NCBI GenBank assembly: GCA_964487465.1
Contig: CAZAQI010000003.1
Span: forward strand, 1 to 51,555
Direction of reading: 5' to 3'
Source of the DNA: an uncultured Candidatus Bathyarchaeia archaeon
GTDB lineage: Archaea; Thermoproteota; Bathyarchaeia; TCS64
Length of the DNA: 51,555 nucleotides
Part shown: in pieces, positions 11,626-31,856 of the stretch
Numbering within the stretch: the first letter of the stretch is position 1
Layout: every line of letters begins with the position of its first letter
Position numbers and translations under genes: made by a program
The notes under the pieces: generated by a model
Seen by the model: only the letters and a program-made list of their open reading frames with translations
The model's database searches: none
What the model was told of the DNA's origin: nothing

Positions 11626-11661
11626 ACAATCGTTAAAACCCATTAAAGCCCCCTTATTTTC

Positions 11662-12507: not shown

Positions 12508-12569
12508 TTCACCCCCTTTATTCAACTAGGTGTTTTTAAGTAATAATAACTATAATACACTGATATTCA

Positions 12570-13283
12570 ATGCCCTATTGTCCTGAATGTGGAACAGAGA
12601 TAGATGAAAATGACGAGGTTTGCAGTAATTGTGGTAGCAGAATAAGCAGCTCATCCCCAGCACCAGCTGGTGACGTGGATGCTGTTGGACACCTTACAAC
12701 CGCCTTTAACCTAGCTATGGCTCAACCCATGGTATTCATACCCGCCATACTTGGAGGCGTAATCAGCAGTGTACTAAGCTGGATAGCCACCCGACTGGGC
12801 TTCGTAGCAGCCAGCTTCGGGTTCTTCAGAGGATTCGCCATATTTACAGCCATCTTTGGAATGATAGGTGCGTTCTTCGTATACATCTTAGGCTTCGCTA
12901 CCATCGATATGGGGAGGGACGCCTACTTTAATAGACCTCTCAGCCTAGGTGAGAGCATAGGATATGTTACAGGTCGGTTAGTAGATTTCATCATAGCAAG
13001 TATAGTCGGTGCAATCCTTGGTATCACTGTGATCTTGATCCCAGTGGTATCATTGATGTTCGTAGTCATGGTAATGGATGAAGTCGGAGTGGGAACCGCG
13101 TTAAGCAAATCATTCGACGTGATCACAGCAGACCTAGGTGACATCGTAATAGTGATATTGGTAAGCATCATTGGATCAGCCCTCTTAGGTTATGTACCTG
13201 TTATTTCTGGTCTGCTCAAATCCGCCTTAACCGTGGTAATAAACCTAGCCTTCATAGACATCTATCATCATTACAGAAGCTAA
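12570..13283 (+). CDS. Zinc-ribbon domain membrane protein, function unknown
   Basis: N-terminal CPECG...CSNCG zinc ribbon, followed by about 5 hydrophobic helices. Confidence 0.55.
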   Translation: MPYCPECGTEIDENDEVCSNCGSRISSSSPAPAGDVDAVGHLTTAFNLAMAQPMVFIPAILGGVISSVLSWIATRLGFVAASFGFFRGFAIFTAIFGMIGAFFVYILGFATIDMGRDAYFNRPLSLGESIGYVTGRLVDFIIASIVGAILGITVILIPVVSLMFVVMVMDEVGVGTALSKSFDVITADLGDIVIVILVSIIGSALLGYVPVISGLLKSALTVVINLAFIDIYHHYRS

Positions 13284-14308: not shown

Positions 14309-17080
14309 TTATCTTATTTTACCGTTTTTTACCTTCTCTATCCTGATCTTCTCTGCGTCGGTTTTCAGCTGCTTGCCTTGGAGATAAGCTTTACCCCCCT
14401 GGGCCTCCAACGTATACTTTAGGAACTCCTCGAATGAGATCTTCTCAAATTTGTACTCCTCTACTCCATCAACATACACCTGGTCTCCAGGCTCGCTCTT
14501 CTCAGGGTTCAGTATTCCAACGTTCTCACCATCGTCTCCAGCTAGTAGCATCCCCTCACTGAGCTCGCCTCTTAGCTTCGCTGGCTCTAGGTTAGTAACT
14601 ACTACTAGGTTCTTGCCTAGCAGATCATTCGGATCAGGATAGTGTGGTTTCAGTCCAGCACATAGCTGTCTTTCCTCGTCACCGAGATCAATCTTCAACA
14701 AGTATAGCTTATCCGCGTTAGGATGATCCTTTATCTCGGTTACCTTGGCTACTTTGAGGTTTAACGCTGAGACATCAACGGGGTTAACAAGCCTATATTC
14801 ACCACCACAGTACTCCGTGATGAGCTCACACATCTCGACCAGCGCCCCCTCCAAGTATAAACCCGTGGTTTTCTCGTTACCCTGCACATAGAGTAGAAGA
14901 TTCTCTGTATCAAAACCGATCTTGGTGTGTTGTCCCTGCTTTACATCAAGCCAGCATAGGACTTTTTCCTCGTCCATCATAGCGAATTTACCGGGCTGAA
15001 TCTTCTCAGGCTCCGTCTCACCCAACGGTGTATACAGCTCATTTCCTCTTGTTACCCCGAGTTCTAGGTCACCTTTGATATTATCCAAGTCGTGGAGTCC
15101 AGCGCTGACGAGTTTCTCTGCTGACACTAGGTTATAGCTGTCGACAGCCGTGTTAATTGTTGGGAAGTTTCCATTTTCCTTAACCAATTTAACCAGATGA
15201 ACCGCAGAGTTCTCTACATCAACCTTGAATTTCTTATAGATCTTGTTGTAAGCCTCAACAATGGGGTTATGTTCCAAGTCAATATCCTTGACAATGTCTG
15301 CTACCTGTTTCTTGAGCTTCTCCAAATCACTGTCAGATTTCTCAATATCGACGCCCTCAATGATGGCTAGTTTAACCTCTACACCAAGCTTGGCTATCCT
15401 TGGATCCATCTCAAAGTTGATCTCCCTCTTCTCCGGCTCTGGTTCAGGGGTCTTGATCTCGATGGGGTCAATCTTTCTCAATATTATCTCGGCCTCGCCA
15501 AGTTGATGATCTTCTACTCTTTTATCAATGTCATCCCATGTGAGGTTCTCCAAGTTCAGCTGCTTCTCGATCTTCTCAGCGAAAAGGGGCATGATAGGTT
15601 TAATCATTATAGCTATGTTTTTCACGATGTATACGCAGTCGGTTAATAGTCTCTGCGTTTTCTCTGGGTCTGTTTTACGATGCTCCCATGGGGCATTATC
15701 CTGAAAATACTTGTTACCTGTGCTACTTATTTCCAATATCCTGTTTACAGCTTCTCTGAATTCGTAGTTATCATAGGCCTCATAGACCTTCATGGATTTC
15801 TCGTGGATATCCTCAAGTAGTTTCTCGTTATCGCTCTTCGTTGTCTTGCCGTCAAAGTATTTCCCTGTAAAACTCATAACCCTGTAGACGAGGTTAGCTA
15901 GGTTTGACACCAGTTCATTGTTGATCCTGTTCTCAAGATTCTTCAGATCCAGATCTATGTCTGTCATGGTGTGACTCAGGTTAGCTGCGTAGAAGAACCT
16001 CAACAATTCTGGGTCAAGATACTTCTGGAACTCCTCGGCTGTTAGGAATGTACCTCTGCTCTTGCTCATCTTCTCCCCGTTAACAGTCAGAAAACCATGT
16101 ACAACTATGTTGTCAGGTACATGGAACCCTGCTCCATGGAGTACCGCGGGCCAGAAAAGTAGATGAAAATAGATTATGTCCTTACCTATGAAGTGAATTA
16201 TTTCATGTTCGTCTGTCTGCCATATGTCATCAGCACTGAACTCCTTATCCTTGCAGTAATTAGCGGTAGAGGCTATGTAGCCAATAGGTGCGTCTAACCA
16301 TACGTAGAAGTATTTATCCTCCTCCCCCGGTATCTTGAAACCAAAATATGGCCCATCTCTGCTGATACACCAGTCCTCTAGGCCATCGTTTACCCATGTT
16401 AATACCTGATTCCTTATCTCCGGCTGAAGTCTCTTATTATTGTTCAACCAGTCTCTAAGCCAGTCACTGAACTCGCCCAGTTTAAAGAAGTAGTGACGGC
16501 TCTTTTTCCTTATCGGCGTGGCGCCGCATATGCTACAGTACGGGTTTAGCAAGTCAATGGTACTGTACGCTGTGTTACATTTCTCACAGACATCTCCATA
16601 CTGATCCTGAGCCCCACAATTCGGGCACGTACCTTTAACGAATCTATCTGGAAGGTATCTTTCACAGTTCTCACAGTAGGTTAACTCGATCTCCTTGGTG
16701 TATATGTGGCCTTTCTCTTTTAGACGATTGAAGATCAACTCCGTGTAATGCTTGTTCTCTGGACTATTGGTACTGTAATAACTATCAAAATCCACAAGAT
16801 AGTTATCATAATCCCTCTTGTGCTCCTTCCACCAACGATCAATAAAGTCCTCAGGTGAGACGCCCTCCTTGGCGGCGTTAATCTCGATGGGAGTGCCATG
16901 AGTATCCTCTGCGCCACAATAAATAGCGTCTCTACCGCTCATCTTGAGGAATCTAACATAGATATCTGTCTGAATATACTCTACCATGTGTCCTATGTGG
17001 ACCGGGCCGTTTGCGTAGATTAATGCGGATGTGATTAAGGTTTTCTTATTACTACTGCCTGTCAATTTTGTTGCCTCCAA
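14309..17080 (-). CDS. metG: Methionine--tRNA ligase with an inserted B3/4 domain, an EMAP/Trbp111-like tRNA-binding domain and a C-terminal tail
   Basis: HIGH motif (PVHIGHM), KMSKS motif (KMSKSRG) and four Cys knuckles (CENC, CPNCG, CEKC, CSICG). A B3/4-like segment FPTINTAVDSYNLVS...GLHDLD lies at about 14770..15425. An OB-fold segment HPNADKLYLLKIDLG...VVVTNLEPAKLRG follows. TTG start at 17080, with no ATG before the HIGH motif. Confidence 0.9.
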   Translation of the reverse strand: MEATKLTGSSNKKTLITSALIYANGPVHIGHMVEYIQTDIYVRFLKMSGRDAIYCGAEDTHGTPIEINAAKEGVSPEDFIDRWWKEHKRDYDNYLVDFDSYYSTNSPENKHYTELIFNRLKEKGHIYTKEIELTYCENCERYLPDRFVKGTCPNCGAQDQYGDVCEKCNTAYSTIDLLNPYCSICGATPIRKKSRHYFFKLGEFSDWLRDWLNNNKRLQPEIRNQVLTWVNDGLEDWCISRDGPYFGFKIPGEEDKYFYVWLDAPIGYIASTANYCKDKEFSADDIWQTDEHEIIHFIGKDIIYFHLLFWPAVLHGAGFHVPDNIVVHGFLTVNGEKMSKSRGTFLTAEEFQKYLDPELLRFFYAANLSHTMTDIDLDLKNLENRINNELVSNLANLVYRVMSFTGKYFDGKTTKSDNEKLLEDIHEKSMKVYEAYDNYEFREAVNRILEISSTGNKYFQDNAPWEHRKTDPEKTQRLLTDCVYIVKNIAIMIKPIMPLFAEKIEKQLNLENLTWDDIDKRVEDHQLGEAEIILRKIDPIEIKTPEPEPEKREINFEMDPRIAKLGVEVKLAIIEGVDIEKSDSDLEKLKKQVADIVKDIDLEHNPIVEAYNKIYKKFKVDVENSAVHLVKLVKENGNFPTINTAVDSYNLVSAEKLVSAGLHDLDNIKGDLELGVTRGNELYTPLGETEPEKIQPGKFAMMDEEKVLCWLDVKQGQHTKIGFDTENLLLYVQGNEKTTGLYLEGALVEMCELITEYCGGEYRLVNPVDVSALNLKVAKVTEIKDHPNADKLYLLKIDLGDEERQLCAGLKPHYPDPNDLLGKNLVVVTNLEPAKLRGELSEGMLLAGDDGENVGILNPEKSEPGDQVYVDGVEEYKFEKISFEEFLKYTLEAQGGKAYLQGKQLKTDAEKIRIEKVKNGKIR

Positions 17081-17378
17081 GATATGCGGTCACTAGGGTG
17101 GATTCCACAATATAATTCTAAGCCATAAACCAAGGGTTGACTAAAACCATCTGAAATCAACCGCTCAATAATCAATGATACTGTGAGTTCTATTAACACC
17201 CCAAAGTGTCTAACCTTCACAGATGCCTTGAACACATAAAAACATATAGCTCACAAACAAGAGCCTGTTCGTTAATTTATTATCCTCGACCATGGTTTTA
17301 GTCTTTGATTAAAGTGGCTGATGAGGGCTCACCGAGTATGGGCTGGCTTCAATTCTCTCATATGCCTCTGTATACTTC

Positions 17379-17645
17379 ATGAGCTGGAAAATAACCCATA
17401 AACCGAACCAAAACTTGTTTTCTCTACTTACTTATCCGGTTTACTATCTAGGCGTCTTATACCCCGTGTATCTTCTAGCGAGTAGAGCAGGATACGCACA
17501 TCTTCTAGTGGGGATTAAACACGCTGTTTACTCATGGCTTTTCTCCGGGTTCAGTTTATGGGTATTAACTGCTAAAACGAGTTTCATTTTCCTTGTCTTA
17601 TTATACTATGCTTCTTACTGGGGACTTTACCGGGCGCATACATAG
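17379..17645 (+). CDS. Small membrane protein M1, an N-terminally truncated paralogue of 25237..25710 (possibly a decaying gene)
   Basis: Gap-free alignment with M2 over 36 positions (xY...A.R.....L.V....A.YSW). Homology continues upstream of the ATG to a TGA at 17322-17324 with no start codon. Confidence 0.4.
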   Translation: MSWKITHKPNQNLFSLLTYPVYYLGVLYPVYLLASRAGYAHLLVGIKHAVYSWLFSGFSLWVLTAKTSFIFLVLLYYASYWGLYRAHT

Positions 17646-17814
17646 CATTTAGTAGACAAATACGCCGAGAAGCATCAGATGAGCTAAAGGAATCAACAAA
17701 CACCATTGAAACATAGTATATGATGGAGAAAGGATTGTTCTAGGGCTTAGATCTAAATCCTGAAGAAGTAGCTGAGGTAATCAAAGAAGTCTATTTAAAA
17801 TCACAGAAAACAAG

Positions 17815-18141
17815 ATGGAAACCTTAGAGATTCTTACATTAGAAAACATCAAACCTTGGGCCTATGTAGGAGGCGAGCTAGTAAGAGCCGCCATGGCTCC
17901 CTTGATGCCCGCGCTAGGCGAGAGCCTTGGATTAACAAGTGAAAAAATGCTACAAGTGTTTGAAAACCGAGACAATATAGAACGATTGATCCAACTATTA
18001 GAAGAAAACCTCAAAAAAGAGGAAGCAGAACGTAAACTAAAAAAAGAAAAAGAAAAGAAGCAGAAAAAAGAGGAAAAAAAGCGAGAAGAAGCAGTTAAAA
18101 AAGCTCTACGAGACGCAGAGACGAAAAATAAGCGAAAATGA
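17815..18141 (+). CDS. Small charged protein S1, paralogue of 25741..26118; its N-terminal part is disrupted upstream
   Basis: The blocks ILxLExxxP...PLxPxLG...LxxFExxxNxExLIQxLE are shared with S2 at identical spacing. It has a K/E-rich tail. The upstream stretch 17720..17814 carries the homologous N-terminus, interrupted by a TAG and a frame change. Confidence 0.55.
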   Translation: METLEILTLENIKPWAYVGGELVRAAMAPLMPALGESLGLTSEKMLQVFENRDNIERLIQLLEENLKKEEAERKLKKEKEKKQKKEEKKREEAVKKALRDAETKNKRK

Positions 18142-18229: not shown

Positions 18230-20062
18230 ATGGCAAGCCTCAGCAAACCCAAAGAGGAAATGCAATTTATTATTGCCACCGACGTAGGCAGCACCACAAC
18301 AAAAGCCCGTTTCTTTCACAAGAAAGACGGCGAGTGGCGTTTCCTAGTAGCAGGAGAGGCACCCACGACAGTAGAAGCCCCATATGAAGACGTTACCCTT
18401 GGGGTGCAGAACGCGGTTCGTGAGGTAGAGGAGCTAACAGGACACAAGCTTCTAGCACCTGAAGGTGGAATGATCATCCCATATGACGGCGAGAAAGGCG
18501 TAGACCTTTACTGTACAACCAGCAGCGCTGGTGGAGGACTACAGATGATGGTCGCCGGCTTAATCAAGTCAATGACAGCAGAATCAGCAAACAGAGCGGC
18601 TCTCGGAGCAGGCGCTATCGTGATGGATGTAATCGCCAGAGACGATGGCCGACAGAGCTACGAAAAGATCAAGAGGATACGGAACCTTAGACCCGACATG
18701 ATCCTAATGGCGGGGGGAACCGATGGAGGAGCAAGCCAGCACGTAATGGAGATAGCTGAGCTAATAAAGGCAGCAGAACCCAAGCCGAGGCTAGGCGTAG
18801 CATACGAGCTGCCAATCGTATACGCGGGTAACAAGGCACTAAGATCAGAGATAGGCGAACTAATGGAGGAAGGCTTCGCCCTAGAGATAGTTGATAACAT
18901 CAGACCCGTTCTTGAGCAGGAAAACACAGAGCCAGCGAGGCGAGCTGTCCACGAGTTATTCATGGAGCACGTCATGAGCCATGCACCAGGCTATACAAAA
19001 CTGATGAATTGGACACCCATTGACATCATGCCCACACCAGCTGGAGAAGGTATGGCGATCCAACTAATCGCAAACACATTCGATCAAAACGTTCTAGGCG
19101 TAGGACTCGGAGGAGCAACCACTAACGTATACTCAATTGTAGAAGGAAGATTCGTACGAAGCGTATCAGCGAACCTTGGAATGAGTTACAGCGTAACCAA
19201 CGTCATGAAAGAGGCTGGCATAGAGAACATCATGCGATGGATCCCATTCAACCTAGATGAAGAAGAGGTCGCCAGTCGTCTAATGAACAAAATGATCAGG
19301 CCAACCACTATACCACAGACATTAGAAGATCTAATAGTAGAACACAGCGTTGCCCGTGAAGCACTGAGACTAGGTTTAAAACATCATAGAACCATCGCGA
19401 CTAGGCTCAAAGGCGTACAGTTAGAGAGAACCATCAGCGACATGTTCGAGCAAGCAGTAGAAGATAGCTACGTACAGATGATGAACATAGATATATGCGC
19501 TGGAACAGGTGGCTTATTGAGCCACGCCCCTAGACGAGTTCAAAGCATGCTCATACTGACAGATGCTTGGCTCACCGAGGGTATTACCAGAATGATGCAG
19601 GACAGCGTCTTCATGATGCCGCACTTGGGTGTTGTATCAACAGTATACCGTGAAGCAGCATGGAACATCTTCGATAAAGACTGTCTACTCCGACTAGGAA
19701 CAAGCATAGCAGCGTCTGGACAAGCCAAATATGGGAAACCCGTTATGGATATAGATATAGAGATGCCTAATGGTAAGAAACTGGAAGAATCCCTAAGCTT
19801 GGGTGATCTAAAGCTGATACCTTTAGGGGAAGGCGAGGAAGCCAAAGTCTTTGTTGAGCCCGCTAACCAATACGATGTAGGAGCGGGTCCAGGAAAAGAA
19901 CTTGAGGCCACTGTTAAGGGAGGCGTAGCGGGACTATTACTTGATGCCCGTGGAAGACCACTTTATCTCCCAGATGAAGAACAGAAAAGAAAAGAGCTAT
20001 TGTTGAAGTGGTTCAGAGCAATTGATCTATACCCTGAGGAATCCTTGGAGGCGTTACTATAA
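18230..20062 (+). CDS. GlmL/MutL-like ASKHA-fold ATPase (glutamate mutase accessory-protein family) with a C-terminal extension
   Basis: The N-terminal phosphate-1 motif ATDVGSTTTKA, plus MAGGTDGG and AGTGGLLSHAP, match the three ASKHA motifs as arranged in GlmL. It is 610 aa, versus about 460 aa for typical GlmL. Confidence 0.6.
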   Translation: MASLSKPKEEMQFIIATDVGSTTTKARFFHKKDGEWRFLVAGEAPTTVEAPYEDVTLGVQNAVREVEELTGHKLLAPEGGMIIPYDGEKGVDLYCTTSSAGGGLQMMVAGLIKSMTAESANRAALGAGAIVMDVIARDDGRQSYEKIKRIRNLRPDMILMAGGTDGGASQHVMEIAELIKAAEPKPRLGVAYELPIVYAGNKALRSEIGELMEEGFALEIVDNIRPVLEQENTEPARRAVHELFMEHVMSHAPGYTKLMNWTPIDIMPTPAGEGMAIQLIANTFDQNVLGVGLGGATTNVYSIVEGRFVRSVSANLGMSYSVTNVMKEAGIENIMRWIPFNLDEEEVASRLMNKMIRPTTIPQTLEDLIVEHSVAREALRLGLKHHRTIATRLKGVQLERTISDMFEQAVEDSYVQMMNIDICAGTGGLLSHAPRRVQSMLILTDAWLTEGITRMMQDSVFMMPHLGVVSTVYREAAWNIFDKDCLLRLGTSIAASGQAKYGKPVMDIDIEMPNGKKLEESLSLGDLKLIPLGEGEEAKVFVEPANQYDVGAGPGKELEATVKGGVAGLLLDARGRPLYLPDEEQKRKELLLKWFRAIDLYPEESLEALL

Positions 20063-21234
20063 TGGTAGACCAAGAAACAGAGAAAAAGACCAATAACGAG
20101 GAAAAAGATACAGAAGAAGCCCACGCATACACTCCTGGGCTTAAAGTCAAGAAATCTACATCAGTAACCAAGATGCGAAGACTCCCCTTATTAGGGGAGG
20201 TCTATGTAGAAGAAGGGGACACGGTAAAACACGAGGACATAGTCGCTAGAACAGAGATCAGTGGTGACCCTGAGATCGTAAAGATGTCCATGATTATGGG
20301 GATGGAGCCAGAGGATACTCCTCGGTATATGACCAAAGATATTGGTGATAAGGTTGAGAAAGGGGAGCAGCTTGCATTCTATAAAGCCCTTTTTGGGTTA
20401 ATTAAGAAAGAGGTTAAAGCACCGGTCACTGGAACCCTTGAAAGCTTTAGCGAGGTAACGGGACAGGCTATTATTAGAGGTTCCCCGATCCCCGTTGAGG
20501 TTGACGCATATATCCCAGGCGAGATAATAGAAATATTGCCTAGGGAAGGCGCGATAATTGAGACTCATGCAGCTTTCATTCAAGGAATCTTTGGGATTGG
20601 AGGTGAGACGCATGGAGAAATACATGTAGCGGTCTCTGGTAATGATGATGTATTGGAGGCGGATATGATAACCTCTGAGCACACAGGTAAGGTGATAATC
20701 GGTGGATGCAGAGTAACCTTGGAAGCCTTGAAGAAGGCGGTCGAGATAGGTGTGTCCGCTGTGGTAAGCGGAGGAATCCGTCACGACAACCTGACAGAGT
20801 TCACAGGGGAAGAGATCGGTGTAGCTATTACTGGTCAGGAAGAGGTAGATATTACCGTTATAATCACTGAGGGATTTGGTAACATGAACATGAACCAATC
20901 CACCTTTGCTCTATTGAAAGAATTCGAGGGTTACAGTGCCTCTGTTAATGGTACCACCCAGATCAGAGCAGGCGTCCTCCGTCCAGAGATAATTATCCCA
21001 CATGAGATGAAGGTTGAGGATGAATCTGAGGAGCTCGCTCAGGGAATGATACCAGGTACACCAATCAGGATTATCCGGCAGCCCTACTTCGGAGCCATAG
21101 GCGAGGTTCACAGTCTACCTGTTGAACTTCAGCAACTAGAATCAGAGAGCATGGTACGTGTCGTAAACATCAAACTTGATGAAGGAAAAGTAGTCACAGT
21201 ACCAAGGGCTAACGTCGAGATAATCGAAGAGTAA
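20062..21234 (+). CDS. Hypothetical protein with N-terminal lipoyl/barrel-sandwich-hybrid-like motifs, translationally coupled to the GlmL-like gene
   Basis: TAATG stop/start overlap at 20060-20064. The segments GEVYVEEGDTVKHEDIVART, VEKGEQLAF and APVTGTL look like barrel-sandwich hybrid strands. The C-terminal half is Gly-rich and alpha/beta-like. Confidence 0.45.
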   Translation: MVDQETEKKTNNEEKDTEEAHAYTPGLKVKKSTSVTKMRRLPLLGEVYVEEGDTVKHEDIVARTEISGDPEIVKMSMIMGMEPEDTPRYMTKDIGDKVEKGEQLAFYKALFGLIKKEVKAPVTGTLESFSEVTGQAIIRGSPIPVEVDAYIPGEIIEILPREGAIIETHAAFIQGIFGIGGETHGEIHVAVSGNDDVLEADMITSEHTGKVIIGGCRVTLEALKKAVEIGVSAVVSGGIRHDNLTEFTGEEIGVAITGQEEVDITVIITEGFGNMNMNQSTFALLKEFEGYSASVNGTTQIRAGVLRPEIIIPHEMKVEDESEELAQGMIPGTPIRIIRQPYFGAIGEVHSLPVELQQLESESMVRVVNIKLDEGKVVTVPRANVEIIEE

Positions 21235-22676: not shown

Positions 22677-25163
22677 CTAAGCAGTTCCATAGTAAATGCT
22701 GTTGAATAATAGCTTTAAGGTGGCTCTATTCTGGTTTCTGAAATGAGGTGGGCATCCAATCATGATTATTGTCCCATCCCCCGCTGGTATATCTGCTACA
22801 GATGTCTTTCCTCTGAGATGTTTTTCACCCAGTATCCAGCCGCTTATCAATGGATCAGCCTCAGGGTACCATGCAACCGCTTCACCGTTCTTCAGATTGA
22901 AGGCTGGGCTATGTAAGAACATTATTGTCTCTTCTCTATCGAAACCGTAACCTGTGGGATGTGCGTTATCCACTAATACCCTCAATAAGCTACCTGGGCA
23001 ATAGAACTCTTTCTCGTCGAGACCCTCCAGTACTAGTTCTGCTTCAGCCCAAAGTTCTTTCACTGCGTATTCGCAACTACGGTTAAGAGTAATCACTGTG
23101 CCGCCTTTATCAAGGAAGTCTAGTATATTCCGGTTACCTATATCCCCGATTCCTTGGATGTATTTTTTCTCGTACATGGATGGGTCCATGTATTCCTGTC
23201 CATGCATTCCATTCATTATGGATGAGTTGGACATATCTGGAATAATCAAGACCTCTGTTTCATCAAGTTTCCCTGATCTTATATCCTCGGGGTAGAGATT
23301 AGTATAATTGAAGTCGTATGCTTCCAGAACCATTCTTAGCCACCCCTCATCGGCAAGGGGTAACCATGGTCGATAAACTCCAATCTTCGGTGGGTTTATC
23401 TCAAATGTATCAGGAAGGGGTCTCTCTAATCCCGTGAAATCAATACCGTAATCTATCGCCATCTCTCCCAGGACTCTTTTTATCCCCGTCTCGGATTCAA
23501 CGATGTATGTTCCGGGTTTGAGTGCCTCATCGCCTACTTCAAATTCTTCCAGAGATCTATGTACCTTAAACCCTTCTCTAAGTAATTTGTTCACGGCTTT
23601 AACGGAATAGTTTGGAGTGGGGTCAAACACATAGTATTCCCCTTCTCCAATAACCGCTCCTTTTTCGAGTTCTGGCTCATCAACTATTCGTAATGCAGCG
23701 TCGAATGATTCAGCTACCTCAACAACGTTTACACCCATCTGAAGATTCAAAGTATGTGCTGTAACATCATACGGCACCTTAGGTGGCATATCAGGTTTAT
23801 CTCTAAGATCAGGGTATACTTGTTTCTCCAGTAATGCCTTGGCGAATTTACCGTAGGGCTGAGCATAGCGTATGAAATAGCTCCCAGCAGGATAATCTAT
23901 TCCATCAGCAGTGAATTCGGCTATTGCCTGATCAACTTCAACATCACCCATACGCATAACCTCAAGTAATTCAACAACTGCAGCGGGGTCACGTTGCCCT
24001 GATGGGATTATGAATCCATAAGACCCCTCTTCGGGGGTTAATGCTCTTTTTCCCATCTCATATGTTCCTTTTAACCATCTTTTACGGAATTTAGCTGCGG
24101 TCTTGAGACACGCAATGGAGGCTATGAGTTCGTATTCTATAATGTCTCTTAGGGTCCATTTTCCCCCTCTCCATGGAAGAGGATGGTTCCATCTAGAGTC
24201 AAGAGGTTTGAAGCCTTGGCGTTCTTCAAGTTCTTCTTTTTCAATCTCTATGGGTGAGGCTATGTTGACAGAGGCAGCTTCTGAGAGTATTCTTATTCCT
24301 CCATGGTAGTGCTGGTATGCTCTTGCTGGGGTCCAGCCATCAAAAACCCAGTGCACCGCCACGCCTTTTCTGTCTTCGCGTGCAAGGGCATCAGCCATGC
24401 TTATCCCCATGAAGTTTACACCACTCTGCAGTATAGGATCTACGTTTGGCTCCATAGGGTCTATGAAGGGGGGAACAAAGAATCTTGGCCCTTTCTTACC
24501 CATTTGATGGATATCATAGACTATCTGAGGGTGCCAGACATTGTGAACTTTGCTTATGGCTAACTGGGTTTCTTTTAGAATAAACATGTACCAGTCACGG
24601 TTGTTATCGTGACCCGCGTACTTGTGGTAGACATATGGAGGGGTGCTTCCCTCATAATCTGTGCCAAGATATTTCTTATACCATTCAACAACTCGTCGAT
24701 TTCCATCTGGGTTTAGAGAAGGAACCAACAGGAATACAACATTATCCAAGATCTCCTTTACCTCCGTATCCATACTGGTAGCCAGTTTATGTGCTAGCTC
24801 CATGCTCATCTGACTACCGCCAACCTCGGTGCTATGGATGCTACATGTGATCAAGACAATTGTTTTCCCTTTCTCGATTAACTTCTCAGCTTCTTCTTCA
24901 CTCAGATCTACTGGTTTGGATAGCTTTAGCTGGATTTCTCTAAGCTCATCTAGATTAGCGAGGTTCTCGGGGCTTGAGATGGTTGCTAATATGAACGGGT
25001 TTTTTTCAGTGGTCTCACCGAGAGTCTCTACTTGTATCCTTGGAGACGTTTTGCCAATCTTGTTAAAATAATCGACTATCTCAGGCCAATCAGCCAGTTT
25101 CTTATCTGTTCCAACTGGATAACCAAGATGATCTTCAGGTGAAATTACGTCCTGTACTGTCAT
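22677..25163 (-). CDS. M14-family zinc carboxypeptidase with a large C-terminal extension
   Basis: HxxE zinc motif (CSIHSTEVGG), plus LVPSLNPDGN, GHDNNRDW and a third ligand region YDIHQMG. The protein is 828 aa. Confidence 0.8.
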   Translation of the reverse strand: MTVQDVISPEDHLGYPVGTDKKLADWPEIVDYFNKIGKTSPRIQVETLGETTEKNPFILATISSPENLANLDELREIQLKLSKPVDLSEEEAEKLIEKGKTIVLITCSIHSTEVGGSQMSMELAHKLATSMDTEVKEILDNVVFLLVPSLNPDGNRRVVEWYKKYLGTDYEGSTPPYVYHKYAGHDNNRDWYMFILKETQLAISKVHNVWHPQIVYDIHQMGKKGPRFFVPPFIDPMEPNVDPILQSGVNFMGISMADALAREDRKGVAVHWVFDGWTPARAYQHYHGGIRILSEAASVNIASPIEIEKEELEERQGFKPLDSRWNHPLPWRGGKWTLRDIIEYELIASIACLKTAAKFRKRWLKGTYEMGKRALTPEEGSYGFIIPSGQRDPAAVVELLEVMRMGDVEVDQAIAEFTADGIDYPAGSYFIRYAQPYGKFAKALLEKQVYPDLRDKPDMPPKVPYDVTAHTLNLQMGVNVVEVAESFDAALRIVDEPELEKGAVIGEGEYYVFDPTPNYSVKAVNKLLREGFKVHRSLEEFEVGDEALKPGTYIVESETGIKRVLGEMAIDYGIDFTGLERPLPDTFEINPPKIGVYRPWLPLADEGWLRMVLEAYDFNYTNLYPEDIRSGKLDETEVLIIPDMSNSSIMNGMHGQEYMDPSMYEKKYIQGIGDIGNRNILDFLDKGGTVITLNRSCEYAVKELWAEAELVLEGLDEKEFYCPGSLLRVLVDNAHPTGYGFDREETIMFLHSPAFNLKNGEAVAWYPEADPLISGWILGEKHLRGKTSVADIPAGDGTIIMIGCPPHFRNQNRATLKLLFNSIYYGTA

Positions 25164-25236: not shown

Positions 25237-25710
25237 ATGGATGAAGAACAAAGGGAAACCAGTGGATCCGAACGGATAAAAGAGTCTATCGAAGAGAACA
25301 AGTTGCCCAGAGAACCTAATCAAGCCGACTATATGGCTGCAGCAATATTAGCAAACGGTATAATCTGGTTCTGGATGGAATCTCTAAAAATGTTCAGCGG
25401 GTTCACGAGTAGGATTCATCCTACATTTTTAGCTGATCTAAGTTATTTAACTTTCATAATAGCCGGTTTTATCTCTTCTCAACAGGTTGCTAAAAGAAGT
25501 GATCGAAACCAGTTGATAGTCGCATTGCGCTCTGCTCTGTATTCTTGGGCGGGTTCCCTTTTTATGATGGTTACTATGACTGGGGGTCCAACAATCTCTT
25601 TCGCTTTAATCATACTAGTCTGTCTATTAGCGGGGGCTGTCCTTGGTAGTTACATGTTGATAAGATGGCGTATAAAAGAACGAAAGAATATTCTCAAAGC
25701 AAGTTCTTAA
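25237..25710 (+). CDS. Membrane protein M2 (about 4 TM), full-length paralogue of 17379..17645
   Basis: Acidic N-terminus followed by hydrophobic helices. It shares the A.YSW block with M1. Confidence 0.6.
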   Translation: MDEEQRETSGSERIKESIEENKLPREPNQADYMAAAILANGIIWFWMESLKMFSGFTSRIHPTFLADLSYLTFIIAGFISSQQVAKRSDRNQLIVALRSALYSWAGSLFMMVTMTGGPTISFALIILVCLLAGAVLGSYMLIRWRIKERKNILKASS

Positions 25711-25740
25711 ATCCGATTCAAACATGAGTAATATTGTTTC

Positions 25741-26118
25741 GTGGACATCATGTTTTGGGATGAAGAAATATCGCCGGAGGAAGAGGAGGAAATCATAGAG
25801 TCAATTGCCCGAAAGTTATATCGATACGGATTAGAGACCGCGGGGATACTGTTTCTTGAAAGCCTAAGACCTATCAGTAGATATGCTTCAAGTATGGGTC
25901 AAGTTGTTGTTTCACCTTTGTTGCCTTTCCTGGGTGACAATCTTATGATGAAAGGTGACAAAACTTTAAGAATATTTGAACGAGAAGAAAATGTTGAAAA
26001 ACTAATTCAAAGATTAGAAGATTTAGCTGTAACAGGTCTAGAATCTGAAAAAGAGCTTAAAAACGAATTAGAGTGTCGAGAAAATGATGAGACAAGCATA
26101 GAAGAAGAAAAAGGTTGA
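25741..26118 (+). CDS. Small acidic protein S2, paralogue of 17815..18141
   Basis: GTG at 25741 or ATG at 25750. It has the same conserved blocks as S1 and lies 30 nt downstream of M2. Confidence 0.6.
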   Translation: MDIMFWDEEISPEEEEEIIESIARKLYRYGLETAGILFLESLRPISRYASSMGQVVVSPLLPFLGDNLMMKGDKTLRIFEREENVEKLIQRLEDLAVTGLESEKELKNELECRENDETSIEEEKG

Positions 26119-26434
26119 CCTATAACTATCTTTCAATTTAGTTAATATTGATCGCGATAAATTTGTTGTATTATGTTTTCTAAAACCTGTTTTTCTCAGA
26201 GAACGAGAACAAGTTTCTATTTTCATTAGATCTTTTCTTTGTATAGGTAGTTATTTTTTATGAGAACTTAGTAAAAATTCTTTTAAAACTAGAAATATTA
26301 TAAAATATCTAGTTATTGAAAAAAAGTATTATATATACAAAGTAATGATATTGATTCAAGTCTATATTCATCGCGAGTAGCTCATAGTCGCTCTCAGGGG
26401 TAATTATGAGTCTCTGTGATGAATAGGCTAAAAA

Positions 26435-27235
26435 ATGGAAGGAAAAACAATGGCAATTATAGTAGAAGGACGAGTGATGACTTTCCTATTGATGGTCATT
26501 TTCTTCGTCTTAATGTACTACTTCATGGTACTAAACAAGGACGAACAGTATACTATTAGAACAATGCCGGCACTAGAAGCAGTTTCTGAAGCTGTTGGAA
26601 GAGCAGCGGAGATGGGGCGTCCAGTTCTTTGGACACCAGGTATGTCTGGAGCTTTGAACAACTCAAACCAAGGGCCTCAGGTATTAGCTGCCATCAGCAT
26701 TCTCCAATATGTTACAGAGGAATGTGTTAAGGCGGGGGTGCATATACAAGCAATTACGCCTCTACCAGATGCATTACCTCTTGTCGAGGAGACAATGCGA
26801 ACAGCATACCTAAGGGAAGGAAAACCTGAAGAGTTTGATCCCTCCGAACAAATTACTTTCATCGCTCAGCAATCACCCTACCTGACTGGGGTTTTAGGTT
26901 ATATGAATAGAGAAAAACCAGCCTCAAACATCCTAGTCGGTGGATTTTACTATGAGGCGGTAGTAATCGGTGAAGCAGGAAACCATATTGGTGCGATGCA
27001 AATCGGTGGAACCAACAACACACACCAGATGCCGTTCCTCGTAGCAACATGTGACTACATGCTCCTAGCAGAGGAACTATTCGCAGCAGGTGCCGCTATT
27101 AGCCAAAACAGAGATATGCTTGGTTCAATTAAAGGAGAGGACTATATGAAAATAATCCTTATGGCGATAACAGGGATTGGTTTCATACTAGGTGCACTAA
27201 ACATAACAATAATTGCTGACCTGTTAAGGATGTGA
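26435..27235 (+). CDS. Membrane operon subunit A: bitopic-anchored protein (N- and C-terminal TM helices with a central domain of about 200 aa), unknown function
   Basis: Hydrophobic segments MTFLLMVIFFVLMYYFMVL and IILMAITGIGFILGALNITII. I recognise no motif. An alternative ATG lies at 26450. Confidence 0.65.
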   Translation: MEGKTMAIIVEGRVMTFLLMVIFFVLMYYFMVLNKDEQYTIRTMPALEAVSEAVGRAAEMGRPVLWTPGMSGALNNSNQGPQVLAAISILQYVTEECVKAGVHIQAITPLPDALPLVEETMRTAYLREGKPEEFDPSEQITFIAQQSPYLTGVLGYMNREKPASNILVGGFYYEAVVIGEAGNHIGAMQIGGTNNTHQMPFLVATCDYMLLAEELFAAGAAISQNRDMLGSIKGEDYMKIILMAITGIGFILGALNITIIADLLRM

Positions 27236-27242
27236 TGAAAAG

Positions 27243-27893
27243 ATGTCAAATGTACTAAAACAAGAAGCAGTTTACATACTTACGGGGATAGTCACAGTTT
27301 TAATGCTAGTTGAATATTTCTTTTTTGCTGGTACTCAAGTATGGGCTGAGACCATAAGAACTTGGGCTGTTATTATTTTTAACATCTCACTTGGTCTCGG
27401 AGCAGCCCGATTACTAATACAACACAGTTTGAGGGTTCAAAGGCAGAGGAGAGATTGGCACTTCAGCGTAGTATTATTAGGATTATTCGTAGTAATGCTC
27501 TTGACTGGCTTTACAGGTTACATCACAACAGGTGTACAGACAAATAACGCTATTTACAACTGGTTATTCAATTACGTTTATACCCCACTAGGTGCAACAC
27601 TATATCCAATTACTGGGTTCTATATCTTCTCAGCAGCCTATCGTGCTTTCAGAGCAAGGAATGTCGACGCAGCCCTCATGCTAATAGCAGGCTGTTTCGT
27701 TATGCTTAAGAATGCTCCTGTAGGCGAGGCTATCTGGGTAGGTTTTGCGACCATAGGTGATTGGTTCCAGTTCACTGGTCAAACACCGGGAATGAGAACC
27801 TTTGCTATAGTAGGTGCTTTGGGTCTAATCGCGTATGGATTCAGAGCGTTACTTGGTAAAGAGCGTGGATTCTATGCAGGAGGAGGCGAGTAA
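27243..27893 (+). CDS. Membrane operon subunit B: polytopic membrane protein of about 6 TM, unknown function
   Basis: It starts 7 nt after the stop of A. Six hydrophobic stretches are present. The motif NWLFNYVY is shared with subunit D. Confidence 0.65.
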   Translation: MSNVLKQEAVYILTGIVTVLMLVEYFFFAGTQVWAETIRTWAVIIFNISLGLGAARLLIQHSLRVQRQRRDWHFSVVLLGLFVVMLLTGFTGYITTGVQTNNAIYNWLFNYVYTPLGATLYPITGFYIFSAAYRAFRARNVDAALMLIAGCFVMLKNAPVGEAIWVGFATIGDWFQFTGQTPGMRTFAIVGALGLIAYGFRALLGKERGFYAGGGE

Positions 27894-27895
27894 GA

Positions 27896-28726
27896 GTGAG
27901 TATATTAAGTAAACTAGCTGATATAGATCGTAGGGTATTCTACTGGATACTCTTCGTGGCTCTTATGGTTCCATATCTTAATCCAATCGGATTGCCGATT
28001 AACATAGCAGAGAATACTCAAGAACTATACGATGGAATCACCGGTGACTCTGTAGACGAGGGTGATGTATGGATCATAAACTTTGGCTATGGCGTCAGCG
28101 CTTGGTCAGAGTGTCATCCAGCCGTTACAGTCTGTACGAAAGCATTATTCAGAGAAGGTGCCAAGCTAATATTCGTTGGTATACATTACGATGTCGAGCT
28201 TACCTATAAAAAGCTACATGAGACAGTCCCAGATTTCGCTGACAAGGAATATGGTGAAGATTATGTATTCCTTGGCTATTTCACAGGCGGCGAATCTGGT
28301 GTTGCCCAGATGGCATCCAGCATAAAGAGCGTATTCCCCGAAGATCACTTCGGAACGCCCTATGATGAAATACCGATGCTACAAGACGTCGAAGATGTAC
28401 ACGATATAGCTGGTGTCCTTTCCTCGGATACAGGTGACTACGGCGGGCACTTCATGACTCAGTGGCAAGCCGCCTACGGAACAAAACTAGCAGAGATAGG
28501 AATCGCAATGAACGCCTCAACTGATCTGCCAAGATGGCAAGCAGGCAACTTCTTTGGCTTAAGCGTAGGTTCACGAGGTGGAGCAGAACTAGAGAAACTC
28601 ATTGGCGAACTTGGTGATGCTACCATCACAATGGACAGCATTAACGTAAGCCACCTGTTAGTTGTGTTTGCGATAATACTAGCTAACATAGGAGTAATCA
28701 CAGAAAAACTAGGAGGTAATCAATAA
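27896..28726 (+). CDS. Membrane operon subunit A': same architecture as A (N- and C-terminal TM helices with a central domain)
   Basis: The GTG start lies 2 nt after the stop of B and is preceded by GGAGGAGG. Hydrophobic segments are VFYWILFVALMVPYL and LLVVFAIILANIGVI. Confidence 0.65.
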   Translation: MSILSKLADIDRRVFYWILFVALMVPYLNPIGLPINIAENTQELYDGITGDSVDEGDVWIINFGYGVSAWSECHPAVTVCTKALFREGAKLIFVGIHYDVELTYKKLHETVPDFADKEYGEDYVFLGYFTGGESGVAQMASSIKSVFPEDHFGTPYDEIPMLQDVEDVHDIAGVLSSDTGDYGGHFMTQWQAAYGTKLAEIGIAMNASTDLPRWQAGNFFGLSVGSRGGAELEKLIGELGDATITMDSINVSHLLVVFAIILANIGVITEKLGGNQ

Positions 28727-29361
28727 TGGCATATCCAACAGCAACCTGGGACGTAATCGGCCTATGGGTGGGCTGGTTCCTGATGCTAATGATATACAGC
28801 CTACCGCTGTATAAAGAAAATATAGCTTACAGGACAGCAGAGCACATGTTCATAGGCGTTACATTGGCAATTTCAATTATTGTCAACTTTAGTAACGTTA
28901 TGAGAATGTGTATCAGACCTTTAATGCAGGGTAATCTACTGATGATCGTACCCTTAATTCTAGGGTTAATGATCTTCACGATGCTAATCCCTGAATATAG
29001 ATGGTTAAGCAGATACCCAATAGCAATACTGGTCGGAGCCGGATTTGGCCTAGGTATCCGTGGAACAATAAAACCGAACCTTCAGGACGCTATTATCGAT
29101 ACGATAACAGCTCCTACAAGCGGCGGTCTAATGGCTTGGTTCAACTACCTGTACGTAGCTGTAGGTCTAGTCTGCAGTATAATGTACTTCATGTTGACCT
29201 TTGAGCACACCGGACCACTAAAGGCGCCCACGAGGATCGGACGATTGTTTATCATGGTTGGTCTAGGAGCCTACTTTGGTAACACAGTACTGTTCAGGTT
29301 CACGATGCTAGCAGGCAGAGCACAACACTTCCTGCAGGTACTGAAACTAATACCCATGTAA
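28726..29361 (+). CDS. Membrane operon subunit B': polytopic protein of about 6 TM, distant paralogue of B
   Basis: TAATG overlap with A'. GGAGGT lies 8 nt upstream. The motif AWFNYLY matches NWLFNYVY of B at a comparable position. Confidence 0.65.
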   Translation: MAYPTATWDVIGLWVGWFLMLMIYSLPLYKENIAYRTAEHMFIGVTLAISIIVNFSNVMRMCIRPLMQGNLLMIVPLILGLMIFTMLIPEYRWLSRYPIAILVGAGFGLGIRGTIKPNLQDAIIDTITAPTSGGLMAWFNYLYVAVGLVCSIMYFMLTFEHTGPLKAPTRIGRLFIMVGLGAYFGNTVLFRFTMLAGRAQHFLQVLKLIPM

Positions 29362-29434: not shown

Positions 29435-30310
29435 ATGGACCAGAGCACCATCAAAAAACTATTAGAACAACACCTCATCTCTCCGAAAGCCAAATTAGAG
29501 GCATTCCTAGCTACCAGTCTAAAGCTACGACCAGCCAGCCAAGTAACCATACCCGCAGAACTACCCAGCGGCTTAGCGATGGGTAAAAAGATCGATCAAG
29601 CAGTTCAACCTCACATGATCAAGCTCCAGAAGATAAAGGATATACGACAGAGAGCATCAGCTGTCCAGGGATTAAAGAAGCTTCTTGATAAGCACTTTGA
29701 GGAAGTTGTTGAAGGGTCCGATGAATACCGGGCGTATTATGACTGGGCTAAGAACAATGGATTGATGGTTAACCAGATTAAGGTAAGGCCAACTGTTCAT
29801 GAGATGTATTTCTACAGAGATAGGGGAACCGGGAGAAAAATCAATAGACTAATGCGAGAACGAGAGAAAATACGGAGAAAAGTACAGCGAAAACCAGGGG
29901 AAAACGTAAACAGCATTAGATTCGCCTACCCGGAAGAGTTTGAACCGAAATGGCTCAAGAGCCTTGGACACATACTCGGATACCCTGATTGCTGCGTAGA
30001 ACAGTACGCCGATGACAGGAAAAATGAAGTAAACGTTGAGGCTAGAGCAGCCCAACAACTGGTAGATGCCCTGAAAGAGGAAGACGTTGACACCCATGTA
30101 TATTACACTGGATACTTTTTCCCCTGTACCCCCAGATGCGAGAAGGCGCTAGAGAAAGGATACCATTGGCATGAAGCCTTCAAAGAACTGGACATGAATC
30201 TAGGCTCCATGTATGAGCAGAACATCTATGTCAACACAGAACTGGTTCTCAAACAACCTGAACTGATACAGAGATACCTCTCACAGTTTAAACCAAAAAC
30301 CAGTGACTAA
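29435..30310 (+). CDS. Cys-rich archaeal protein, DUF483-like
   Basis: The motifs GYPDCCVEQY and FFPCTPRCEKALEKG resemble the conserved Cys motifs I associate with DUF483. Confidence 0.4.
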   Translation: MDQSTIKKLLEQHLISPKAKLEAFLATSLKLRPASQVTIPAELPSGLAMGKKIDQAVQPHMIKLQKIKDIRQRASAVQGLKKLLDKHFEEVVEGSDEYRAYYDWAKNNGLMVNQIKVRPTVHEMYFYRDRGTGRKINRLMREREKIRRKVQRKPGENVNSIRFAYPEEFEPKWLKSLGHILGYPDCCVEQYADDRKNEVNVEARAAQQLVDALKEEDVDTHVYYTGYFFPCTPRCEKALEKGYHWHEAFKELDMNLGSMYEQNIYVNTELVLKQPELIQRYLSQFKPKTSD

Positions 30311-30657
30311 GGATTTGGATAAGGCGGAGGATACTCCCCTTGATCAACCTCAACTCTCTCTATTTTGAAAACCACAGGTCTCTCAGAGTCCGGGCAGCTA
30401 AAATATGTGATCTTATCCATATAATCCCAGGGCTCGGTTACCTCTCGAGTCATGGCGCTAGTTAAAGGAAGAATAGCGCTGAAAGCAGCAAGACAGACGC
30501 TGTCTGTTTCCTCTAATAGGAGCCTGCCAGGGTTCCCGGTGACTGTCATCTTGTCCCCAACCTTATACATCTTACACGGCCCAGAAACATGAATAGATTC
30601 TCCATCAATACTACAGGGCTCGTTTACCTCCACTACCGTGAATACTACTTTATACAT
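30307..30657 (-). CDS. TIGR04076-like small Cys-containing protein
   Basis: It is 116 aa. The pattern C...H.SGPC.MYKVGD ... DSVCLAAFSAILP ... FSCPD resembles the TIGR04076 family. It is divergent from the radical SAM gene. Confidence 0.4.
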   Translation of the reverse strand: MYKVVFTVVEVNEPCSIDGESIHVSGPCKMYKVGDKMTVTGNPGRLLLEETDSVCLAAFSAILPLTSAMTREVTEPWDYMDKITYFSCPDSERPVVFKIERVEVDQGEYPPPYPNP

Positions 30658-30770
30658 AGTCTATCTTGAACCTTTGACTGTAAAAAGATTGGTTATCCTC
30701 AGATGGGCAGGTTTTTTTCGTTCCAGTTCTGAGTATGATTTATAGGTTGTGAAAAAGTACCGTTGCTAAA

Positions 30771-31856
30771 ATGCAGTATCATCTGGTTCTCACCGAGCGT
30801 TGTAATAAACACTGCACCTATTGCGGCGGAACAAGACACATAAACGGTATTCCTCTTGATGTCACATATTCTATAGACGAGTTGGTAGCTTTCATAAAAC
30901 AGGATCCGGATCCAGTTATCGGATTCTATGGCGGTGAACCCTTACTCGCACTGGATTACATGTATCAGGTAATGGACAAGGTGCCTGCAAAAGCCTATAC
31001 GCTCCAGACAAACGCTACCAAGCTAAACATGATCAAGGACAAGTACCTGCACAGATTGCACTCAATACTAGTGAGCATCGACGGTGGAAAAAAAGTCACT
31101 GACTCATGTAGAGGAGAGGGAACCTATGAACAAGTAACCAGTAATCTCTTGGAGATCGAGAACCGGGGATACAGCGGCGATATTATAGCAAGAATGGCGT
31201 TCAGCAAGAACGGAGACATTTACCGAGACGTATCTCATCTCCTAGAAATGGAGGCGCCTTATTTTGATCATGTTCACTGGCAGCTTGATGTTTTCTGGTC
31301 CATATTAGATTCTTGGAATGATCTTGAGGGATGGTTGAAACGATATGAATCAGGTGTATCTCGACTGGTCACAGATTTCACTGAATCCTTCAAGACCGGA
31401 GATCCCTTAGGTATCGTGCCGTTCATACCTGTGCTCAAAACCTTGTTGACGGGGGAAGAAACACCTTATATAAGATGTGGCGCAGGCGCAACAAGTTTTG
31501 CTATACTTACTAACGGTAGAATCGAGGCCTGCCCAATTGCACCGGAGTTACCCTACAGTAACGTGGGACATATAAATGACTCTTCACCTAGCGAGATCCG
31601 TGAAAGCATTCCAGTCGGTTTCCCCTGTACTGAATGTGATGTGCTGGGTGTTTGTGGTGGGCGATGTTTGTTCGCAAACAAGAACAAGTTTTGGGGTATT
31701 GATTGGTTCAATAGGCTATGTGAAACCACTAAACACATGATTAATGAATTACGAAAATGTGTGCCCACGGCAAGGGGACTCATCGATGAGGGAGTTCTCG
31801 ACTCTGGGTTCTTTGATTATCCTGAGATAAATAACGGCTGTGAGATAATACCCTAA
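30771..31856 (+). CDS. Radical SAM enzyme with a C-terminal SPASM domain (AF0577/TIGR04084-like putative peptide-modifying maturase)
   Basis: The CxxxCxxC motif (CNKHCTYCGG) is at the N-terminus. The C-terminal auxiliary-cluster cysteines are CGAG...ACP...CTECDVLGVCGGRC. Confidence 0.75.
   Translation: MQYHLVLTERCNKHCTYCGGTRHINGIPLDVTYSIDELVAFIKQDPDPVIGFYGGEPLLALDYMYQVMDKVPAKAYTLQTNATKLNMIKDKYLHRLHSILVSIDGGKKVTDSCRGEGTYEQVTSNLLEIENRGYSGDIIARMAFSKNGDIYRDVSHLLEMEAPYFDHVHWQLDVFWSILDSWNDLEGWLKRYESGVSRLVTDFTESFKTGDPLGIVPFIPVLKTLLTGEETPYIRCGAGATSFAILTNGRIEACPIAPELPYSNVGHINDSSPSEIRESIPVGFPCTECDVLGVCGGRCLFANKNKFWGIDWFNRLCETTKHMINELRKCVPTARGLIDEGVLDSGFFDYPEINNGCEIIP

Follow-up and report, generated by a model that had tools for sequence, protein, structure and literature searches.

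Several well-described membrane systems share one feature or another with the locus considered here. RnfA and RnfE, like NqrD and NqrE, are pairs of membrane proteins with inverted topology; ATP-binding cassette (ABC) and energy-coupling factor (ECF) systems make use of shared energising modules; PilM-PilN/O, GspL and FtsA couple bitopic membrane proteins to actin-like folds; and relatives of GlmL accompany B12-dependent mutases. Nearest by sequence is the Pfam family DUF6754 (PF20539), an entry that carries no function, structure or literature, and of which no mention was found, under either name, in the literature searched. The locus itself is a run of four genes, here called A, B, A' and B', in a 51,555-nucleotide (nt) stretch of DNA (the window) from an uncultured Candidatus Bathyarchaeia archaeon (contig CAZAQI010000003.1 of assembly GCA_964487465.1). 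Judging from sequence comparisons, the finding is more general than the window alone, and the four genes belong to a widespread module that probably encodes a new kind of membrane machine.

All four genes lie on the plus strand. A (26435-27235) encodes 266 amino acids (aa) and B (27243-27893) 216 aa, followed by A' (27896-28726; 276 aa) and B' (28726-29361; 211 aa), with intergenic distances of 7, 2 and -1 nt and with the ribosome-binding sites GGAGGAGG and AGGAGGT ahead of A' and B', respectively. Hydropathy gave A and A' one transmembrane (TM) helix at each end, with a domain of about 200 aa between, and gave B and B' about six TM helices apiece. This confirmed the alternating architectures described in the first-pass annotation of the window, and the coordinates it had given for six genes (these four and two genes upstream, M2 and S2), the three short gaps and the GGAGG-type sites before the last two genes were all found as claimed.

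A scan of reference genomes with A' returned 32 loci, all of them from Bathyarchaeia save for one 4 kb contig binned as 'Ca. Desulfaltia', and the order A-B-A'-B' was present in every Bathyarchaeia locus long enough to show all four genes. L031 is 95-99% identical throughout the region, and the close relatives are all metagenome-assembled genomes of Bathyarchaeia. The 'Ca. Desulfaltia' label (L027, and also L001-L003) was set aside as probable mis-binning, the gene order being typical of Bathyarchaeia; in L001 the module is followed by the DUF483 and radical SAM genes, as it is in that class. Genuine bacterial examples are L040-L042, together with the signal-peptide forms of A described below. 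In these three bacterial-type loci, a DUF6754 gene is followed by three genes that have no Pfam family and are homologues of B, A' and B' (E = 1e-31 to 1e-68). Over the A-B-A'-B' order as a whole, the homology in L040-L042 runs at E = 1e-31 to 1e-83. A metagenome scan with a diverse DUF6754 alignment added 80 more loci at 33-88% identity, and among 83 further loci the order was A-B-A'-B' in 52 of the 52 testable cases, a testable case being an A gene with at least three module genes after it. Such constancy goes far beyond chance. The source names of DUF6754 members include Bacillota and Vulcanimicrobiota.

The proposal of a single operon for a hetero-oligomeric membrane complex, made from the window alone, gains support from the strict order and tight coupling of the genes in archaea and bacteria, with the order kept in the Bathyarchaeia, in L040-L042 and in every further testable case rather than lost from related genomes. 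Unsupervised clustering of 883 flanking open reading frames (ORFs) brought out no further recurrent partner except a generic ABC ATPase family, and since no other neighbour family recurs, the four genes would suffice as a unit. By this measure they appear to be an ancient unit, self-contained at the gene level and common to archaea and bacteria. The strict synteny is the strongest available argument for one complex, and we infer from it that A, B, A' and B' together form a membrane complex with some 16 TM helices in all. On the contigs of L074, L080, L090, L100 and L109, complete modules stand in tandem, two or three to a contig, and in L080, L100 and L109 the A proteins of the tandem modules differ in the length of their N-terminal region, which looks like a paralogous expansion of the kind seen for specificity-determining components.

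Subunit A is the only one of the four with a catalogued family. It is a full-length member of DUF6754, matching profile positions 7-255 of 257 with 222 bits (E = 7e-66) and clearing the gathering score of 27 bits, and an exhaustive DUF6754 profile search with A yielded 2,167 clusters at 50% identity, 931 of them at E <= 1e-30. Two in-frame ATG codons are found at 26435 and 26450, and most A orthologues are 260 aa long and begin at the methionine that is residue 6 in the window; the true start of A may therefore be 26450, 15 nt downstream of the annotated one. Many acidic and glycine residues of A are invariant (E59, G169, G186, E214 and D236). Many DUF6754 clusters bear long N-terminal extensions. 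The extended bacterial forms of A have a signal-peptide-like start and an ectodomain (FN3, a PQQ_2 beta-propeller or unassigned), with DUF6754 running from the next TM helix on, and the A protein P0469 shows the mirror image, its PKD-containing extension coming after the last TM helix; the A proteins of Bathyarchaeia have no ectodomain.

Neither Pfam nor NCBIfam has an entry for the partner families B, A' and B', and against DUF6754 none of the three gave anything at E <= 1. No consistent family emerged when 30 diverse B and 26 diverse B' homologues were each scanned against Pfam, and profiles of A, A', B and B' searched against the sequences of the Protein Data Bank (PDB) found no relative of solved structure. 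The families are well populated nonetheless, with 303 homologues of A', 224 of A and 491 of B in a database clustered at 90%. A motif of B, SAAYRAFRARN, predicted to lie on the cytoplasmic side, is conserved across the family, and in B' conservation extends to two acidic motifs at the membrane interface, AEH and F-x-EH. B' also contains a tandem repeat of a two-TM hairpin, residues 35-91 (TM2-3) aligning with residues 95-161 (TM4-5) by hhalign at P = 5e-5, compared with P >= 0.056 for reversed and column-shuffled controls; each repeat unit has a conserved arginine at its start and a conserved acidic motif at its end (PEY and FEH). The equivalent comparison within B reached only P = 0.017.

In the AlphaFold2 models, A and A' alike begin with a TM helix, continue into a Rossmann-like domain of alternating beta and alpha elements and end in TM helices. 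The model of A' is good (predicted local distance difference test, pLDDT, 83; predicted template modelling score, pTM, 0.82), and that of A is moderate (pLDDT 66), with residues 148-210 poorly modelled. Foldseek searches of the PDB found nothing below E = 0.07 for A and only generic matches for A' (E >= 7e-4, TM-score <= 0.41), namely the C-domains of GT-B glycosyltransferases, G-protein-coupled receptors (GPCRs) with a fused glycogen-synthase domain, transhydrogenase dIII and dehydrogenases. The top 'GPCR' matches were dismissed, as they are accounted for by the fused glycogen-synthase (PGS) domain plus TM helices.

The distribution of lysine and arginine (K/R) was used to predict how the subunits sit in the membrane. 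A has a K/R of 3.7 after TM1 and of 0.5 before it, and from this bias and from the signal-peptide and ectodomain fusions it is predicted to be N-out and C-out with a cytoplasmic domain. For A', with 6.4 K/R on its tails and 2.7 on the flanks of its domain, the positive-inside rule predicts the reverse, N-in and C-in with an external domain. The same rule predicts B to be N-in and C-in (10.7 versus 2.9) and B' to be N-out (3.1 versus 6.7). The second pair, A'-B', thus appears inverted relative to A-B, which would put the two Rossmann-like domains on opposite sides of the membrane. In L040, an FCB-type bacterial genome, A' (11641-12669) is 342 aa long and carries inserts in the predicted external domain, one of which holds an EF-hand or dockerin-like calcium-loop sequence, DDLNEDGIISEDEVD, of the pattern DxNxDGxIxxxE; an EF-hand-like insert is compatible with an external domain.

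An inverted second pair raises the question of origin. The first-pass annotation had described the operon as internally duplicated, and A'-B' as a duplicate of A-B would make the complex a pseudo-symmetric dimer of homologous two-subunit modules, an inverted-topology pair comparable to RnfA/RnfE and NqrD/NqrE and compatible with any function. Pairwise BLAST gave no similarity for either pair (E = 1.1 for A/A' and 0.24 for B/B'), and hhalign with shallow profiles was not significant for A versus A' (P = 0.055). With profiles of about 90 sequences, P fell to 6e-4, with independently built alignments it was 6e-3 and in another run 1e-3, compared with 0.09-0.4 for cross-family controls. The aligned part was always the same collinear beta1-alpha1-beta2-alpha2(-beta3) segment, containing GRPVLWTPGMSG in A and GDVWIINFGYGV in A', which recovers the weak collinear similarity noted from the window; relaxed hhalign settings gave an end-to-end alignment. 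The order of secondary-structure elements is identical in the AlphaFold2 models of A and A', sizes and TM counts are matched within the pairs, and predicted orientations are opposite in both A/A' and B/B'. Against this, scoring of a hidden Markov model (HMM) against the sequence gave 6-7 bits for A/A', compared with 3-4 bits for shuffled or reversed controls, adding the AlphaFold2 secondary structure left the A/A' hhalign score unchanged, and Rossmann-like folds recur convergently. B versus B' gave P = 0.19-0.27, the same as shuffled and reversed controls, so that A/A' was the one comparison to gain from deeper profiles, and the hairpin repeat inside B' is absent from B. The W(x)FNY motif that had been taken to link B and B' is present in the two window proteins and unconserved in both families, and was rejected as evidence of homology. 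The duplication claim is weakly supported for A/A', whose homology is plausible but unproven, and unsupported for B/B'; duplication of the whole A-B pair is rather unlikely. In a paralogous module, A2-B2-A'2-B'2, each gene matches its own family at 28-38% identity, so that the four families were already distinct before that module was duplicated; any A-B to A'-B' duplication, if it happened, would predate the spread of the module between bacteria and archaea.

Upstream of the four genes in the window, on the same strand, stand M2 (25237-25710; 157 aa), a small polytopic membrane protein of about four TM helices that would be an archaeal accessory component, and S2 (25741-26118; 125 aa), a small acidic accessory protein. 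In the ORF listing of the window, M2, S2, A, B, A' and B' are six co-directional ORFs, and between S2 and A lies an AT-rich spacer of 316 nt (26119-26434, plus strand), presumed to be the promoter region of the A-B-A'-B'-(DUF483) unit. No Rfam element matched this spacer, and neither the window nor the 16 loci also scanned with Rfam had a regulatory RNA or riboswitch, cobalamin riboswitches included, upstream of the module. In L076 there is a cyclic di-GMP-I riboswitch (15860-15946; 94 bits), but it stands some 3 kb past a bacterial module on the downstream side and is not placed to control it.

The M-S pair was said to have a second copy at 17.3-18.1 kb, and this was upheld, as was the place of the pair in the locus. 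S1 (17815-18141, plus strand), which lies directly upstream of an ATPase gene, is 38% identical to S2 (E = 7e-15), and M1 (17379-17645, plus strand; 88 aa) matches M2 weakly (E = 9e-6). The M profile matches the M1 region (17081-17815) in two reading frames, at E = 2e-11 and 1e-6, beside an intact S1, which suggests that M1 is either a pseudogene, truncated and frameshifted, or the product of a sequencing error. M2 has no family match above cutoff in Pfam or NCBIfam. In most Bathyarchaeia loci, M lies upstream of S and the module, and S-family genes adjoin A or the ATPase gene (MutL) in Bathyarchaeia and in the divergent loci L066, L072, L108, L118, L119 and L122, the S-MutL adjacency being conserved.

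The ATPase (18230-20062, plus strand; 610 aa) is an actin-fold (ASKHA) protein of the GlmL/MutL family that matches PF13941 end to end (387 bits, E = 1.7e-115) and extends at its C-terminus some 125 aa past the profile. Its sequence contains DVGSTTTK and GGTDGG, which we take to be ASKHA phosphate-binding motifs. Its scores fall short of the NCBIfam equivalog cutoffs for GlmL (NF040745; 211 versus 475 bits) and Or-4 (NF040744; 217 versus 600) and of the cutoff for the TIGR01319 subfamily (148 versus 204), and it would by these scores be a member of the GlmL/MutL superfamily and not an orthologue of GlmL or Or-4. The start of X390 (20062-21234, plus strand; 390 aa), which is highly conserved, overlaps the stop of the ATPase gene. 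Its N-terminus is a barrel-sandwich hybrid, with Biotin_lipoyl matches in 11/11 members, RnfC_N matches in 8/11 (best 1e-6) and NQRA_N matches in 3/11, and its C-terminus is KOW/SH3-like. Downstream of B', a Cys-rich protein (CC...C...C) is encoded at 29435-30310 on the plus strand and belongs to DUF483 (PF04467; 39 bits against a gathering score of 25, E = 9e-10); it follows B' in most Bathyarchaeia loci where the sequence reaches that far and lies beside MutL-X390 in L052 and L066. PDB sequence searches found no relatives for the X390 and DUF483 profiles, nor for the single ATPase sequence. Nothing relevant was found in the literature searched on DUF483, GlmL, TIGR04076, TIGR04084, and Bathyarchaeia with actin-like proteins; a 2025 paper on a 'fifth actin-like family' was discarded, as it concerns a ParM-like protein.

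The ATPase operon had been noted as a neighbour of the second M-S copy, 7.5 kb upstream. That position holds, and contiguity in relatives makes the operon more than a neighbour. An unbroken layout, [A2-B2-A'2-B'2]-M-S-MutL-X390-A-B-A'-B'-DUF483, is seen in the deeper-branching Bathyarchaeia loci L032, L034, L035 and L037 as well as in L006, and the ATPase operon is directly upstream of A-B-A'-B' in L006, L032-L037, L119 and L122. In the lineage of the window, three reverse-strand genes (DUF362, a 143-aa single-TM protein and an M14-like peptidase) lie between X390 and the module, and the M-S leader is duplicated. S, the ATPase and X390 thus belong to the same system as A-B-A'-B'. Beyond the Bathyarchaeia, 9/83 metagenomic loci have MutL-X390, often together with S, next to modules, and in L100 X390 is directly upstream of three modules. 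As MutL-X390 is missing from 8/9 loci whose flanks reach 5 kb or more on each side, it cannot serve as the general source of energy and is an accessory of some lineages, outside the core.

Two further neighbours recur in the archaeal loci. The M14-like peptidase (22677-25163, minus strand; 828 aa), whose M14 zinc-carboxypeptidase domain is N-terminal, lies divergently beside M2, a position conserved in most Bathyarchaeia loci. Just after the DUF483 gene, at 30307-31856, come a small TIGR04076 protein (minus strand, 3e-19) and a divergently oriented TIGR04084 radical SAM/SPASM protein (1.5e-103), a pair that is kept there in many Bathyarchaeia loci, is not kept there in bacterial loci and may be a separate peptide-maturation pair.

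What the module does is best approached through its architecture. A new type of transport or translocation machine is the reading tentatively preferred here, with somewhat less than even confidence. The features compatible with a transporter are the 6 + 6 TM helices of B and B', a tethered alpha/beta domain predicted to be external, the two-TM repeat of B' and the tandem paralogous modules. Taking complex formation, topologies, transport function and ATPase role as inferred, the four obligate subunits would form one integral-membrane complex of two unlike, oppositely oriented halves, A (N-out) with B (N-in) and A' (N-in) with B' (N-out). The 6 + 6 TM helices of B and B' would provide the membrane pathway, and the tethered external domain of A' would capture or gate the substrate, with help in bacteria from the ectodomains of A (FN3, beta-propeller or PKD). 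Docking and regulation would take place on a face made up of the cytoplasmic domain of A and the basic loops of B, SAAYRAFRARN among them. On this face S-MutL-X390 would act in Bathyarchaeia and some other lineages, joined in archaea by M and DUF483, and one accessory set next to one to three modules would be a shared energising or assembly unit. The wider proposition, of an ancient and hitherto unrecognised four-subunit class of machine in bacteria and archaea, with oppositely inserted halves, that moves or transduces something across the membrane, driven or assembled in some lineages by an actin-fold ATPase with a barrel-sandwich partner, is possible but doubtful.

Several points weigh against a transport machine. 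No subunit resembles a known transporter family in sequence, nor do A and A' in fold, and conserved charged residues are nearly absent from the TM cores of B and B'. Complex formation is read from synteny and the topologies of A', B and B' from the positive-inside rule, in both cases as the sole basis. The absence of MutL-X390 from most well-flanked loci counts here as well; to our knowledge, an actin-fold ATPase that energises transport is without precedent, and we know of no such coupling, for energy or assembly, described for any transporter. The invariant acidic residues of A (E59, E214 and D236) would fit an enzyme equally well.

The last of these points leads to a membrane-bound enzyme complex, for example for lipid or glycan modification, in which the lipid-linked partner would be held by B and B' and the other substrate, nucleotide-activated or phosphorylated, would bind to the Rossmann-like domains. 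The best Foldseek matches of A', nucleotide-sugar-binding GT-B C-domains and NAD(P) domains, are of the right kind, as are the many invariant acidic and glycine positions of A and the two interfacial acidic motifs of B'. Those matches are weak, however, no Pfam or PDB sequence link leads to any enzyme family, and the GT-B-like domain of A' is predicted to lie outside the cell, where nucleotide sugars are unavailable, so that such an enzyme is quite unlikely. The position of the two globular domains, predicted on opposite sides of the membrane, would also suit an envelope-spanning scaffold or surface-assembly machine in place of a small-solute transporter, with the bitopic A and A' tying surface structures, here the ectodomains of A and the external domain of A', to a cytoplasmic actin-fold protein much as in the PilM, GspL and FtsA systems. 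The fusion of A to ectodomains of the surface-protein type, the ASKHA protein and small adaptor-like S that adjoin A in several lineages, and the tandem modules with differing N-terminal regions of A are in keeping with this. A scaffold is nevertheless judged unlikely, given that the A of Bathyarchaeia lacks any ectodomain, MutL-X390 is missing from most loci and no pilin, secretin, S-layer or glycan-synthesis genes recur nearby.

The ATPase also invites comparison with corrinoid or metal handling, with a GlmL-type ATPase loading or repairing a cofactor that the membrane module imports. Its membership of the GlmL/MutL family is strong and B has one weak match to CbiM (E = 0.006). That match is far under its cutoff (16 versus 193 bits), and the families that Pfam reported for 30 B homologues do not include CbiM. 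The Rfam scan gave neither a cobalamin riboswitch nor any other RNA element upstream of the module, B12-dependent enzymes are not among the recurrent neighbours and the ATPase falls under the GlmL and Or-4 equivalog cutoffs; together these points make corrinoid or metal handling highly improbable.

Whichever function is considered, a four-gene module with more than 2,000 sequence clusters is among the larger blocks of unknown prokaryotic membrane biology, and its carriers include several bacterial phyla as well as the Bathyarchaeia, archaea that abound in sediments. With B, A' and B' lacking even a DUF entry, definition of the module hands annotators four linked families and their accessory partners. 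The transport machine makes predictions that can be tested: the two halves should have opposite topologies, docking should occur on a cytoplasmic face and the ATPase should be shared. Bacterial carriers such as the spore-forming Bacillota may permit genetics that are not yet possible in Bathyarchaeia. If it is true that an actin-fold ATPase powers or assembles a membrane translocator, this would be a new coupling principle.

It remains to set the module beside the known systems. The first-pass annotation had recognised no transporter, respiratory or secretion signature in the four proteins, and searches of Pfam, NCBIfam, PADLOC and PDB sequences, together with Foldseek on the A and A' models, were all negative as well; the PADLOC-DB 2.0 defence models gave no meaningful match to nine proteins, the only one being AbiEi at E = 0.024 on the ATPase. 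The architecture, and only the architecture, resembles that of binding-protein-dependent importers (ABC and group-II ECF) in having two 6-TM subunits, a tethered external alpha/beta domain and a cytoplasmic nucleotide-fold domain, and one ATPase set adjoining several paralogous membrane modules recalls the shared energising modules mentioned at the outset. In contrast to those importers, no subunit has an ABC_tran, BPD_transp, EcfT or S-component signature, and the module-linked ATPase is of the actin fold rather than the P-loop type and is absent from most loci. ABC transporter families were absent from the six locus proteins and from the 56 diverse B and B' homologues, with weak TMD0_ABC matches in 9/30 B homologues (E >= 0.004), and the CbiM match of B was the only one to an ECF/CbiMNQO component. 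The TRAP and TTT families (DctM/DctQ/DctP and TctA/B/C) had no matches in the locus proteins or the B and B' homologues.

Rnf and Na+-NQR are alike in their oppositely oriented pair of 6-TM proteins of about 200 aa (RnfA/E, NqrD/E), in bitopic subunits with a globular domain and in a cytoplasmic partner with a barrel-sandwich domain of the RnfC_N or NqrA_N type, a place taken here by X390, which has that domain alone in common with RnfC and NqrA. Unlike Rnf and Na+-NQR, A, B, A' and B' are without conserved cysteines or flavin or Fe-S motifs, and none has an Rnf-Nqr or FMN_bind match. PilM-PilN/O, GspL and FtsA likewise have an ASKHA-fold cytoplasmic protein genetically linked to bitopic membrane proteins, but there is no sequence relationship, pilus and secretion genes are not found nearby and the polytopic B and B' have no counterpart. 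GlmL/MutL of the B12-dependent mutases corresponds to the window ATPase over the whole of PF13941; the latter differs in its scores of 211-217 bits against equivalog cutoffs of 475-600, in its C-terminal extension, and in being linked to membrane proteins and X390 rather than to mutase genes. No known kind of system thus accommodates the module, with the comparison of folds covering A and A'. The module is partly catalogued through DUF6754, itself uncharacterised, and by sequence its family memberships are confined to three, that of A in DUF6754, that of the ATPase in the GlmL/MutL superfamily, below the equivalog level, and that of the downstream Cys-rich protein in DUF483.

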